Translations under genes and position numbers: made by a program | Part shown: in pieces, positions 2,790-14,360 of the stretch | Numbering within the stretch: position 1 is the stretch's first letter | Layout: the number at the start of each line of letters is the position of its first letter | Source of the DNA: Tubiluchus corallicola | Lineage: Eukaryota > Animalia > Priapulida | DNA length: 14,427 nt | Assembly: GCA_030141605.1 (NCBI GenBank) | Contig: JAQGDQ010002116.1 | Span: 1-14,427 of the forward strand | Direction of reading: 5' to 3' | Notes under the pieces: model-generated | What the model saw: only the letters and a program-made list of their open reading frames with translations | Databases searched by the model: none | Told to the model about the DNA's origin: nothing

Positions 2790-3603
2790 CGAATGAATGA
2801 CCGAACGAACGAGCAAGCAGACAGACGACGGAGCAGACGGACAAGCAAACAAACAGACGACCGAGCAGACAAACAAGCAAATAAACAGACGACCGAGCAG
2901 ACGGACAAGCAAACAAACAGACGACCGAGCAGACGGACAAGCAAACAAACAGACGACCGAGCAGACGGACAAGCAAACAAACAGACGACCGAGCAGACGG
3001 ACAAGCAAACAAACAGACGACCGAGAAGACAAACAAGCAAATAAACAGACGACAGAGCAGATGGACAAGCAAACAAACAGACGACCGAGCAGACGGACAA
3101 GCAAACAAACAGACGACCGAGCAGACAGACAAGCAAACAAATAGACGACCGAGCAATGGACAAGCAAACGAACAGACGACCGAGCAGACGGATAAGCAAA
3201 CAAACAGACGACCGAGCAAATGGCCAAGCAAACAAACAGACGACCGAGCAGACGAACAAGCAAACAAACAGACGACCGAGCAGACGGACAAGCAAAGAAA
3301 TAGATGACCGAGCAGATGGACAAGCAAACAAACGGACGACTAAGCAGACGGACAAGCAAAGAAATAGACGACCAAGCAGATGGACAGCAAAAAAATAAAC
3401 GACCAAGCAGATGGATAAGCAAACAAACAGATGACCGAGCACACGGACAAGCAAACAAACAGACGACCGAGTCGACGGACAAGCAAACAAACAGACGACC
3501 GAGTAGACGGACAAGCAAACAAACAGACGACCGAGCACACGGACAAGCAAACAAACAGACGACCGAGAAGACGGACAAGCAAACAAACAGACGACTAAGC
3601 AAA
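2790..3603. repeat. 32-bp minisatellite, ~25 copies, in intron 1
   Basis: Unit ACAAGCAAACAAACAGACGACCGAGCAGACGG recurs at 2841, 2873... The + strand is almost T-free. Confidence 0.96.
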
Positions 3604-8161: not shown

Positions 8162-9940
8162 ATATACAATTACGATGCTTGCAGTATTTGTTTTTTTTTG
8201 CATCTTAAATGAAATGGAAATCTTGGTTCTATAGAAACACTAAATTTCCAAATTATGTGACACTGATGTTTATTGGCTGCAAAGTTTAGACTGTAATCAT
8301 GTTAAACTTTGGGTTTTTCTTTTGTTAATCTCTGTAAAGTTATTTTTTCACCTTGGAATTACTGATGTATCGAGTGTTCAAATTTTTAATTATTATTTAT
8401 GATAGTAATTTCAAGAATGATAATGATAAAATGAACCCACAATTACTAATTTTCATATAGCTGATTATCCAAATGTTCACGGTTCAAATCCGCACTGACC
8501 CATTTTTTTGCAATTCCTTCTTTCACGTAAATTTGGTTTTGCAAAATTATAATTGTGGCGTTTTCCATCATTAAAACTTCAGTGTATGAAAAGTAGTTTG
8601 CGTGTTTATTCTTTGAACGGTGCACAAAGAAATAAAGGAACAGTTGAAGTTTTGTAAACAATTTTTTCATCTTTTCTTATACAATTTTTGATGATTTATA
8701 AAAGTATAAAATTCGTACAAAAAAAGTTATTACAAAATCAGCAAAGATTACAACGATTAGTATTTGTAGGTAATAATAAAACTAGTTACTGATTCATTTA
8801 TGTTGAAACAAAATGCATGAACTTATCATATAAAACATCAGTACAGAGCAAGTTGATAAGTTTAACCCACAGTATACAAATGAGAAAATTTACTTACCTG
8901 CTACCTAAAGTACTTTTTATACGTAATACAAAACAACTGATGCTAAAAAACTTGACATACATACAGCGCTTCATGTTTAATCACTATTAGCTTAATCATG
9001 ATGCAAAAAATCTGTACAAGATTTCACAACCACAATTTTGATAACAAATGGTTAAAACATCGACTTCACACGAACGTGTAAAAAATACTATTAACATTAA
9101 TACAGTTCACCATCGTTTCTTGAATAATTTACAGTGACTATGCAAAATAAATAAGTATAGACAACATAATAAAATAACGATATTCCGAGACGAAGGTTAA
9201 AATCAACCGAACAAGTTAAGGAGTGTTCAGAAACGTGCCATTTGTGTCTATAAAAACGTATTTACAACCTTTTGCAAACTGTTATACCGTGCATAAGTAA
9301 AAAAAGATACGGATAATGTTCATTTTTCCAGCATTTGGGCTATAACTACAGATTAACTGTAAAACTTTGTTAATCAATAATTATAAGCCCAAATTGCCAA
9401 GCTGATGACTGTACGCAAGCGGATATTTTGATAAATACGCAGTTTAACGTACGTCTAGCACAAATACTAACAATTATTCTCGTTAACGAGGTCTGTTTGC
9501 CCACAATGATCCACCCGGCGATCAAACAACATGAAGCTAAACAGCGAAAATTACCAAGTTCGTAGCTGAGTATGGGTGATGTCATTTTCTCTTAGTCTAC
9601 CGAGTTTGTGACGCAGTGGCGCCCTCACACACAATTTTCACTGATCACTTGAAAATTCTATTTTTGAACCTGTAGTTCACACAATTGGAAAAGATGATGT
9701 GATTTATCACTAAGCGTATGGCTACCAGGGTAAAACACTTTTTGGCTAGAGTCAAAATTGAAATATAAACAGCAACAGACATCTGCTCAAAAGTGCTAAA
9801 AAACCTTTTGGTAACATCATAGTTAACACACCATCAGACGGCTTGCAGTCAATATATATTCTTATTACATGATAAATATAAAATTGACAGAAAGATAGCC
9901 TTCACTAAAATCTCAAGCACGTGTCCCGATTTTACTAATA

Positions 9941-10112
9941 TGAACAATGTTGACAAATATTTGTCTTTGAACAATGCTGACAAATATTTGTTTTTGAACA
10001 ATGTTGACAAATATTTGTTTTTGAACAATGTTGACAAATATTTGCTTTTGAACAATGTTGCACAATGTTGACAAATATTTGTTTTTGAACAATGTTGACA
10101 AATATTTGTTTT
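9941..10112. repeat. 27-bp minisatellite, ~6 copies
   Basis: Unit TGAACAATGTTGACAAATATTTGTTTT, containing the palindrome ACAAATATTTGT. One copy is interrupted near 10060. Confidence 0.94.
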
Positions 10113-10508
10113 TGGTATGGAGCAAAGATCTAGAAATACTAACAATTGTTTGTAACCTAATAAATAAAATGTTTTGTGAATAGGAGGAAGCCATATAATT
10201 TTGTATTTATAAAATTGGATTGTTAGTTTTAGTGTGTTGAATGTTTATGTGAAGTTGGGTTGATGACATACATCAGTGTTTGATGTTGTTTTTGTTTTTT
10301 TGTTTGGTAATGTGCTACCATCTTGTACATACATTTGTTTTGTCTGGTGCTTTGTAATTAATGACCGTATAATTTTGTTACTGTATTTTCACCCAGTAAA
10401 TTATAAATGACTGTAAAACATCATATGCCCAGAGTACCAATCTCAATGTGGTTAGTTACACAGTGAATGAAACGATTGGAAAATGATGGTGGTGACTTCG
10501 GCTTGATG

Positions 10509-10559
10509 CTATAATTCTTCGAAGAAAGCAACTCGACTCTTCGTTGATCCTGCTTTGAT
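10509..10559 (-). CDS. NF2: Merlin (neurofibromin-2), last coding exon
   Basis: Acceptor gtgtttcag|ATC, phase 0. Encodes IKAGSTKSRVAFFEEL*, matching the 16-aa Merlin isoform-1 C-terminus (human LTLQSAKSRVAFFEEL) and unlike the ERM ending (IDEFEAM/L). Confidence 0.95.
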   Translation of the reverse strand: MKAGSTKSRVAFFEEL

Positions 10560-10713: not shown

Positions 10714-10912
10714 CAGTGATGTGAATCGATTATCGTTTTATCAAGGAAAAATCGTTTTTTCATCGATTTTCAAAACGATACAAAACAAAATCAATTTCTT
10801 TTCTATTATCGGATCCGTGAAATAAATGATTATCACCACAGAATATTGATGCTATCGGAACATCGATATCGAAATCTCTGTGTGTGATTTGAGCGATTAT
10901 TTGTGTGCCCTA
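10714..10912. mobile_element. ATCGAT-rich, possibly hAT-derived remnant in the last Merlin intron
   Basis: Starts CAGTGATGTGAATCGATTATCG and ends CGATTATTTGTGTGCCCTA, with many ATCG/CGAT motifs. The ends are not good mutual inverted repeats. Confidence 0.25.
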
Positions 10913-10990
10913 GCAACAATAAACAATATTGAGAACCTAGCAACAATAAACAATATTGAGAACCTAGCAACAATAAACAATATTGAGAAC
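10910..10990. repeat. 27-bp tandem repeat x3
   Basis: CTAGCAACAATAAACAATATTGAGAAC, three copies. Confidence 0.95.
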
Positions 10991-11438
10991 AATAGTTGCT
11001 TTGGACATTAAGAGATGGCTTGTTAGTGTACATAGATAAACTTTCTTTTATTAACGGTTGCTAAGTGTATTACAGAAACACGACAAAAAACAAGGGCTAA
11101 TTTTAATAGCGATTTTCTCAAGGTTATGTTTTTCATGGTGCAACCTGTACCTCAACTTCAATGTGGATTATCTCAGCTTAGAAATAACATAGAGTGACGA
11201 ACTTGGTATCAAAATGATCCTCATGAAATGGAGATTCGGGATACGTGAATAGAAAAGCTTAGTTGTCGACTTACGGACAATTTTGCTATGCAAGCACACA
11301 TCACATCTGGAAAGCACTTGCTTGTGGTGCAAAGAGATATGGAAAAAATGGCGTACAGCAAATTCAATCATATCATGCAAATACTAATAGTGCGCATAAA
11401 TTTACTCTAAAAGCCAGCAACGAATTACACAATCTTAC

Positions 11439-11598
11439 CTTGTTCAAGGTAGTATACTTGTTTTCACCCTTGTTAGAACTTTCCTCATGCAGACGGTCCA
11501 TGCTTGTCTGACGATCTTCCATCTTCAATGTCTCTATCTCCGATTTGAGGTCGTTTAGTTGAATTTGCAGGTGTTTGCTCCGTTCAAAGTATTCAACC
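11439..11598 (-). CDS. NF2: Merlin (neurofibromin-2), penultimate coding exon (equivalent to human exon 15)
   Basis: Acceptor cttttctctctag|G, donor AAG|GTAAGA, 160 nt, phase 2-0. Encodes VEYFERSKHLQIQLNDLKSEIETLKMEDRQTSMDRLHEESSNKGENKYTTLNK, similar to human [44 protein letters not shown]. Confidence 0.95.
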
Positions 11599-14360
11599 CT
11601 AGAGAGAAAAGCAGGCTGTGATAAGTCAAGATAGCAAGACGAATTTCAAGATGGCTATTCAACCCTAGAGAGAAAAGTAGGCTGTGATAAGTCAAGATAG
11701 CAAAACGAATTTCAACATGGCTATTCAACCCTAGAGAGAAAAGCATGCCGTGATAAGTCAAGATAGCAAAACGAATTTCAACATGGCTATTCAACCCTAG
11801 AGAGAAAAGCAGGCTGTGATAAGTCAAGATAGCAAAACGAATTTCAACATGGCTATTCAACCCTAGAGAGAAAAGCAGGCTGTGATAAGTCAAGATAGCA
11901 AAACGAATTTCAACATGGCTATTCAACCCTAGAGAGAAAAGCAGGCTGTGATAAGTGAAGATAGCAAAACGAATTTCAACATGGCTATTCAACCCTAGAG
12001 AGAAAAGCATGCTGTGACAAGTGAAGATAGCAAAACGAATTTCAACATGGCTATTCAACCCTAGAGAGAAAAGCAGGCTGTGATAAGTCAAGATAGCAAA
12101 ACGAATTTCAACATGGCTATTCAACCCTAGAGAGAAAAGCAGGCTGTGATAAGTCAAGATAGCAAAACGAATTTCAACATGGCTATTCAACCCTAGAGAG
12201 AAAAGCAGGCTGTGATAAGTGAAGATAGCAAAACGAATTTCAACATGGCTATTCAACCCTAGAGAGAAAAGCATGCTGTGACAAGTGAAGATAGCAAAAC
12301 GAATTTCAACATGGCTATTCAACCCTAGAGAGAAAAGCAGGCTGTGATAAGTCAAGATAGCAAAACGAATTTCAACATGGCTATTCAACCCTAGAGAGAA
12401 AAGCAGGCTGTGATAAGTCAAGATAGCAAAACGAATTTCAACATGGCTATTCAACCCTAGAGAGAAAAGCAGGCTGTGATAAGTGAAGATATCAAAACGA
12501 ATTTCAACATGGCTATTCAACCCTAGAGAGAAAAGCATGCTGTGACAAGTGAAGATAGCAAAACGAATTTCAACATGGCTATTCAACCCTAGAGAGAAAA
12601 GCAGGCTGTGATAAGTCAAGATAGCAAAACGAATTTCAACATGGCTATTCAACCCTAGAGAGAAAAGCAGGCTGTGATAAGTCAAGATAGCAAAACGAAT
12701 TTCAACATGGCTATTCAACCCTAGAGAGAAAAGCAGGCTGTGATAAGTGAAGATAGCAAAACGAATTTCAACATGGCTATTCAACCCTAGAGAGAAAAGC
12801 AGCTGTGACAAGTGAAGATAGCAAAACGAATTTCAACATGGCTATTCAACCCTAGAGAGAAAAGCAGGCTGTGATAAGTGAAGATAGCAAAACGAATTTC
12901 AACATGGCTATTCAACCCTAGAGAGAAAAACATGCTGTGATAAGTGAAGATAGCAAAACGAATTTCAACATGGCTATTCAACCCTAGAGAGAAAAGCAGG
13001 CTGTGATAAGTGAAGATAGCAAAACGAATTTCAACATGGCTATTCAACCCTAGAGAGAAAAGCAGGCTGTGATAAGTGAAGATAGCAAAACAAATTTCAA
13101 CATGGCTATTCAACCCTAGATAGAAAAGCATGCTGTGACAAGTGAAGATAGCAAAACGAATTTCAAGATGGCTATTCAACCCTAGAGAGAAAAGCAGGCT
13201 TTGATAAGTGAAGATAGCTAAACGAATTTCAAGATGGCTATTCAACCCTAGAGAGAAAAGCGGGCTGTGATAAGTGAAGATAGCAAAACGAATTTCAAGA
13301 TGGCTATTCAACCCTAGAGAGAAAAGCATGCTGTGACAAGTGAAGATAGCAAAACGAATTTCAAGATGGCTATTCAACCCTAGAGAGAAAAGCAGGCTTT
13401 GATAAGTGAAGATAGCTAAACGAATTTCAAGATGGCTATTCAACCCTAGAGAGAAAAGCAGGCTGTGATAAGTGAAGATAGCAAAACGAATTTCAACATG
13501 GCTATTCAACCCTAGAGAGAAAAACATGCTGTGATAAGTCAAGATAGCAAAACGAATTTCAAGATGGCTATTCAACCCTAGAGAGAAAAGCAGGCTTTGA
13601 TAAGTGAAGATACCAAAATGAATTTCAAGATGGCTATTCAACCCTAGAGAGAAAAGCAGGCTTTGATAAGTGAAGATAGTAAAACGAATTTCAAGATGGC
13701 TATTCAACCCTAGAGAGAAAAGCAGGCTTTGATAAGTGAAGATAGCTAAACGAATTTCAAGATGGCTATTCAACCCTAGAGAGAAAAGCAGGCTTTGATA
13801 AGTGAAGATAGTAAAACGAATTTCAAGATGGCTATTCAACCCTAGAGAGAAAAGCAGGCTTTGATAAGTGAAGATAGCTAAACGAATTTCAAGATGGCTA
13901 TTCAACCCTAGAGAGAAAAGCATGCCATGACAAGTCAAGATAGCAAAATGAATTTCAAGATGGCTATTCAACCCTAGAGAGAAAAACATGCTGTGATAAG
14001 TCAAGATAGCAAAACGAATTTCAAGATGGCTATTCAACCCTAGAGAGAAAAACATGCTGTGATAAGTGAAGATAGCTAAACGAATTTCAAGATGGCTATT
14101 CAACCCTAGAGAGAAAAACATGCTGTGACAAGTGAAGATAGCAAAACGAATTTCAACATGGCTATTCAACCCTAGAGAGAAAAGCAGGCTTTGATAAGTG
14201 AAGATAGCTAAACGAATTTCAAGATGGCTATTCAACCCTAGAGAGAAAAGCATGCCATGACAAGTCAAGATAGCAAAATGAATTTCAAGATGGCTATTCA
14301 ACCCTAGAGAGAAAAGCATGCTGTCACAAGTGAAGATAGCAAAACGAATTTCAAGATGGC
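11590..14360 (-). repeat. 66-bp satellite, 42 copies, built from the Merlin intron/exon junction
   Basis: Unit on -: GCCATSTTGAAATTCGTTTTGCTATCTTSACTTATCACAGCCTGCTTTTCTCTCTAG|GGTTGAATA. Length 2771 = 42x66 - 1 (1-nt deletion near 12801). The last unit overlaps the real exon start. Confidence 0.97.

Follow-up and report, generated by a model that had tools for sequence, protein, structure and literature searches.

The 14,427-nt stretch of Tubiluchus corallicola DNA analysed here (hereafter the window) carries on its minus strand the 3' end of a gene that we recognise from its predicted product as Merlin/NF2, and a 66-nt minisatellite adjoins the penultimate coding exon of this gene. The array is best understood as a 'mirage' minisatellite, in which an intron/exon boundary of Merlin itself has been amplified in tandem and which has furnished the gene with 41 spare acceptors that are each followed by two in-frame stops and that are tolerated by the host. 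We consider this explanation probable as a whole, including the view that the stops are likely a by-product of the amplification. The real acceptor is the one used in the single transcript found.

Host gene and anatomy of the array

Domains corresponding to FERM_M, FERM_C, ERM_helical and ERM_C are found in the product of the host gene, its best named relatives are called merlin and, as judged from its sequence, the gene is Merlin/NF2. Among the matches listed, the best relatives exhibit approximately 58-69% identity and, where named, are chelicerate, mollusc, nemertean and insect proteins. The match between the penultimate exon and the C-terminal chain of human Merlin (4ZRJ_B) covers residues 21-74 of that chain. 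The donor of this exon (Table 1) was scored with a nine-position consensus. Three AATAAA sites on the minus strand are candidates for the 3' end of the gene, of which the one at 11052 lies inside the last intron and those at 8610 and 8274 are located approximately 1.9-2.2 kb past the Merlin stop.

Two features by which 'mirage' minisatellites are known, namely a tandem repeat unit that spans an intron/exon boundary of its host and the retention of splice signals within the units, are both evident in the Merlin array. Each unit is composed of 57 nt from the end of the intron and 9 nt from the start of the exon, and carries a branch-point-like sequence (TTGAC or TTCAC) at approximately position -28, a pyrimidine tract and a TAG acceptor. 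The TAG is kept in 42 of the 42 units, and the nucleotides from -5 to +9 are identical throughout (42/42 units); the decoys are complete acceptors. The exon-proximal unit (11655-11590) is the authentic one, which leaves the other 41 of the 42 acceptors as decoys, and units at a distance of 2.7 kb are no less intact than those nearby. Given the position of the sole 65-nt unit, use of the decoys is predicted to generate a ladder of +66n nt for the first 18 of them and of 66n-1 nt for the distal 23.

Table 1. Coordinates of features in the window (position 1 is the first nucleotide of the window; a minus sign denotes the minus strand)
Feature	Position	Strand	Remarks
66-nt minisatellite	11590..14360	-	42 units (one of 65 nt); TRF 42.0 copies, 95% matches; 42 acceptors; 21 distinct unit strings
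65-nt unit (1-nt deletion)	12786..12851	-	sole unit of that length; the 23 distal decoys are offset in the ladder
Authentic acceptor AG	11599..11600	-	P0001 runs from the upstream exon directly into V-E-Y, no insertion
Authentic penultimate coding exon, Merlin/NF2, 160 nt	11439..11598	-	phase 2 start, phase 0 end; Pfam ERM_C E=7e-17; PDB 4ZRJ_B Merlin E=1.3e-13; 100% identity to P0001
Donor AAG/GTAAGA	11433..11438	-	strong; 8/9 consensus positions
Last coding exon, 16 codons + stop	10509..10559	-	follows 879-nt intron; stop 10511-10509; P0001 ends with the translation of the penultimate and last exons
Junction-made TAG, nearest decoy	11655..11657	-	codon 3 after decoy acceptor at 11664; same in 41/41 decoys
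Native intronic in-frame TGA	11646..11648 (decoy 1)	-	codon 6, plain intron sequence; present in 41/41 decoys
32-nt minisatellite, 24.8 copies	2805-3595		
27-nt array	9941-10114		in presumed Merlin 3' UTR
Second, different 27-nt array	10909-10990		in Merlin last intron

Several other elements are apparent elsewhere in the window. A 51-nt minisatellite of 30.6 copies (4-1562) begins just past an acceptor-like site near 1568, and one of its minus-strand frames runs for 530 codons without a stop as far as the window edge. This array could be a repetitive coding exon, or the open frame could be due to chance. Pfam matches to BON_like and CesT within it include no single stretch that passes on its own; these look like artefacts of summing over repeats. 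Also on the minus strand are two exons (2714-2592 and 1847-1650) of a Quiver/Ly-6-like gene, a type with a three-finger fold, which match the Pfam QVR profile with E=0.0052 (profile positions 1-40) and E=5.3e-05 (profile positions 46-86), each below the cut-off when taken alone. The exons are followed by a hydrophobic tail that resembles a GPI-anchor signal.

Transcript evidence and the stops behind the decoy acceptors

A protein search with the penultimate exon returned one match from four candidates, a 518-aa protein (P0001) that is 100% identical over the exon and that derives from one 3,241-nt Logan contig. Given that a 3.2-kb contig is too short to accommodate these introns, P0001 appears to originate from spliced RNA. 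It spans both junctions with authentic sequence, the proximal acceptor having been used, and thus shows the terminal authentic copy forming a normal mRNA in this one contig, whose animal may carry a different array. The sequence-only reading of the decoys presupposed that the upstream exon, which lies outside the window, has phase 2, and this holds. A K immediately precedes V-E-Y in P0001, which fits a codon completed by the first G of the exon, and in an alignment of 120 Merlins, made up of P0001 plus the 119 highest-ranking others in the list, the column before V-E holds R in 118 sequences and K in two, such that the predicted phase is supported by R or K in all 120.

No truncated or decoy-spliced form is present in the 90% cluster of P0001, which has one member. 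Likewise, the 120 best listed of 3,690 matches, obtained by scoring 7,991 candidates among proteins of 284-907 aa, include no near-identical shorter Merlin, all of the others being at most 69% identical. Among proteins of 30-283 aa, none of 32 short candidates scored against residues 340-451. The 120 aligned Merlins comprise none that is cut short and none with an insertion at this point; counted from the Y column to the end, 67 residues are found in 119 of the 120, 110 residues in one, and fewer in none. This absence of decoy products from the protein collections is weak evidence, because forms of low abundance are lost from assembled contigs and NMD would conceal the products of decoy use.

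The authentic exon reads G GTT GAA TAC, and all 41 decoys read G GTT GAA TAG, wherein the G of the stop codon is the first base of the following unit. Selection of the two nearest decoys (acceptors at 11664 and 11730) would give exons of 226 and 292 nt; in the nearest of them, the TAG and the TGA lie 216 and 207 nt, respectively, ahead of the last junction. AS-NMD substrates are expected to carry a premature stop that precedes a junction by at least 50 nt, and the product of the first decoy would do so (216 nt). Downstream of V-E there are 67 residues, and decoy use would remove 67 of the 76 residues in the ERM_C match; in 33 of these 67 columns, at least 90% of 119 relatives are identical. 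The numbers offered in the sequence-only reading (V-E-stop in the decoys, exons of 226 and 292 nt, and 67 aa lost) were all accurate. Its statement that mis-selection leads to NMD targets or to Merlin without its last 67 aa is also supported, in that any decoy use would give a stop at least 216 nt upstream of the last junction and the loss of 67 aa, but the contrast that it drew with a 22-aa insertion is not.

In that contrast, the stop created at each repeat junction was credited with turning a 22-aa insertion into a poison product. Three codons after the junction TAG, however, every decoy carries the native TGA of the intron, which renders the junction stop redundant. Because all 41 decoys contain this TGA, none of them could ever have given a 22-aa insertion, and the proposal that the junction stop prevents one was rejected. 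Also rejected was the argument that 41 stops exceed chance expectation, since these are copies of one junction and not independent events.

Duplications across the Merlin acceptor were simulated in 6,600 combinations of 15-124 intron nt with 1-60 exon nt, all of which share one intron sequence and therefore are not independent. In 5,911 of these (90%), the resulting stop precedes the last junction by more than 50 nt, which applies to all 4,400 of the frameshifting duplications and to 1,511 of the 2,200 that are in frame. A stop made by the junction itself arose in 43 of the 2,200 in-frame duplications (approximately 2%), and in 22 of 645 when units of 40-100 nt were considered. Within the next intron, 498 of 822 intervals of 57 nt (19 codons) hold a stop in a fixed frame. 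Thus, the junction stop has odds of approximately 2-3%, yet it has no added consequence. Because one junction was copied, because the TGA makes its stop redundant, and because 90% of the simulated duplications would equally become targets under the NMD rule, the stops are likely a by-product of duplication rather than a built-in device, and the supposed 'poison' property is not special to this array.

A related suggestion was that the stops are the reason why the array is tolerated. The stops do conform to the NMD rule, but this suggestion is weakened by what has been described for human Merlin, in which the C-terminal domain binds the FERM domain, as the earlier reading had stated, and truncation of the C-terminal domain is mentioned as a way to release auto-inhibition (PMC4493278). 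A truncated product that escaped NMD therefore need not be harmless. The same concern applies to the view that the array is leaky and is buffered by NMD, wherein the nearest decoys would be used measurably, Merlin output would be slightly reduced, and the premature stops would let the array persist, with no regulation involved. We judge this view to be unlikely. It draws on the completeness of the decoys as acceptors, on the ordinary exon sizes that the two nearest would produce with stops well ahead of the last junction, and on the description of a duplication in the CBS gene as able to yield two mRNA variants (PMC11017215). However, any such buffering would be independent of the junction stop given the TGA at codon 6, and no decoy product is present in the protein collection.

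Variation among units and the case for regulation

Among the 41 units of the same length, to which the column analysis was confined by leaving out the 65-nt unit, 17 of the 66 columns vary. At column 6, the authentic unit and most distal units have C, and the proximal and middle units have G. An MFE fold of approximately three units (-34.5 kcal/mol) was set aside, as it came without a shuffled control. We consider it exceedingly improbable that the array or its copy number is an assembly artefact, given the 17 variable columns, the 1-nt deletion, the position-ordered blocks of variants and the 21 distinct unit strings. Furthermore, both ends of the array join unique sequence cleanly, as is the case for real minisatellites. 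The ordered variants suggest that local expansion took place after the original duplication.

Nineteen contiguous columns are invariant, and these extend from position -5 through the 9 exonic bases and a further 5 bases into the unit that follows. A run of 19 columns was reached in 5,056 of 200,000 column shuffles (P=0.025), and the corresponding value was P=0.039 when only non-singleton variants were used. For the TAG and TGA columns alone, invariance has P=0.15. A value of P=0.001 for a 20-column core was dropped in favour of the run test, because its columns had been picked after viewing the data. A purely neutral array does not predict an invariant run of 19 columns, and the invariance of the acceptor core and junction is the one result that, weakly, favours maintained decoys. 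The same pattern could also arise if decoys exchange sequence with the one functional unit, in which both the splice site and the codons are under constraint.

These data bear on the possibility of regulated unproductive splicing, in which the decoys would be retained by selection to act as poison acceptors and the dose of Merlin would be tuned through copy number or by splicing factors. The invariant core and junction, the 2% frequency at which a junction stop is expected, and the conservation of the 67 residues that would be lost are all compatible with such a role. Nevertheless, we regard it as very improbable. The stop columns by themselves are unremarkable, the invariance can be produced by exchange with the functional unit, the junction stop is redundant, units lying 2.7 kb off are no more degraded than near ones, and there is no truncated isoform in the 120 Merlins. 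Similarly, we give very little credence to a more specific proposal in which the decoys are selected and tunable by copy number, such that the length of the array would set the share of Merlin pre-mRNA that ends in NMD or yields an open Merlin without its tail, with the invariant core and junction as the footprint. If this were true, the minisatellite would be a heritable dial on Hippo-pathway dose.

Proposed mechanism and comparison with known systems

Under the preferred interpretation of a tolerated boundary amplification, slippage or unequal exchange would have enlarged a single 66-nt duplication within a region prone to repeats; tandem repeats make up 5,465 of the window's 14,427 bases. 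Splicing would then proceed by exon definition over the 160-nt purine-rich exon (purine content of 0.62, versus 0.37 for the unit), wherein the strong donor would pair with the nearest acceptor at the end of an intron that exceeds 2.8 kb. A donor search in the array found no GT that scores above 5/9, compared with 8/9 for the real donor. Given that the array contains no strong donor, the decoys cannot form exons of their own and can only lengthen the real one, by what would be U-rich intron sequence. For the same reason, the idea that they serve as micro or cassette exons was rejected, and a poison cassette with its own donor, as in some AS-NMD systems, is not present in the Merlin array. As an ordinary back-up, NMD would clear the occasional mis-spliced mRNA, like most splicing errors, on the assumption that NMD operates in this animal. 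The 50-nt rule for NMD has been described, and the dependence on the exon junction complex differs among lineages (PMC6173133).

The closest parallels are the mirage minisatellites of lancelets, which have been reported for the globin gene BflGb6 (the 3' end of an intron plus the 5' part of exon 2), Adh3, troponin C and PGBD5, and which are reported not to disturb splicing (PMC3087553, PMC3902484). Like the Merlin array, these consist of head-to-tail copies of an intron/exon boundary with splice signals, and normal mRNA is made from the terminal authentic copy. The Merlin unit of 66 nt falls within the range of lancelet mirages (10-160 bp), whereas the array comprises 42 units, compared with 3-6 in BflGb6, and resides in a different gene. 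Given these reports, and with no decoy-spliced product found in the protein collections, the earlier proposal that the array acts in unproductive-splicing regulation is not supported.

Among human examples, CBS 844ins68 is a 68-bp duplication across an acceptor that introduces two nonsense codons (PMC11017215), and splicing to the downstream copy yields normal mRNA (PMC2630376, PMC13282417). The similarity to the Merlin array is considerable, in that the unit size and make-up are nearly identical, nonsense codons lie behind the duplicated acceptor, and the downstream copy is strongly favoured. However, CBS carries one extra copy of 68 nt that shifts the frame, whereas the Merlin array carries 41 extra copies of 66 nt that remain in frame. 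An acceptor duplication that leads into stops has therefore already been published. In the 37-bp VNTR of human F7 intron 7, the terminal unit is the real splice site, and the identical pseudo-sites are functional yet silent (PMC1557585). The F7 repeat concerns the donor side, and transcription reaches its real site ahead of the pseudo-sites, whereas the real acceptor of Merlin is preceded by 41 decoys in the transcript.

Poison exons and regulated unproductive splicing couple an alternative splice choice to NMD. Merlin decoys would resemble them by placing a premature stop ahead of the last junction, and differ from them in that there is no cassette exon and no donor in the units; if used, a decoy would work as a poison acceptor. 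Repeats that change gene structure, rather than silent acceptors, are treated in another report (PMC2812944). Our literature search, whose coverage lay mostly outside subscription journals, found no report of such an array in the Merlin gene.

The Merlin locus thus offers a natural reporter, in which 41 near-identical complete acceptors are transcribed before the real one and differ from it only beyond base +9 and in their distance to the donor, and it could be used to test exon definition versus first-come scanning in an invertebrate. If decoy use scaled with copy number, it would constitute a new way to tune the dose of a tumour suppressor. The junction stop is no evidence of design, and the Merlin array is a new, large but ordinary member of the known mirage class.
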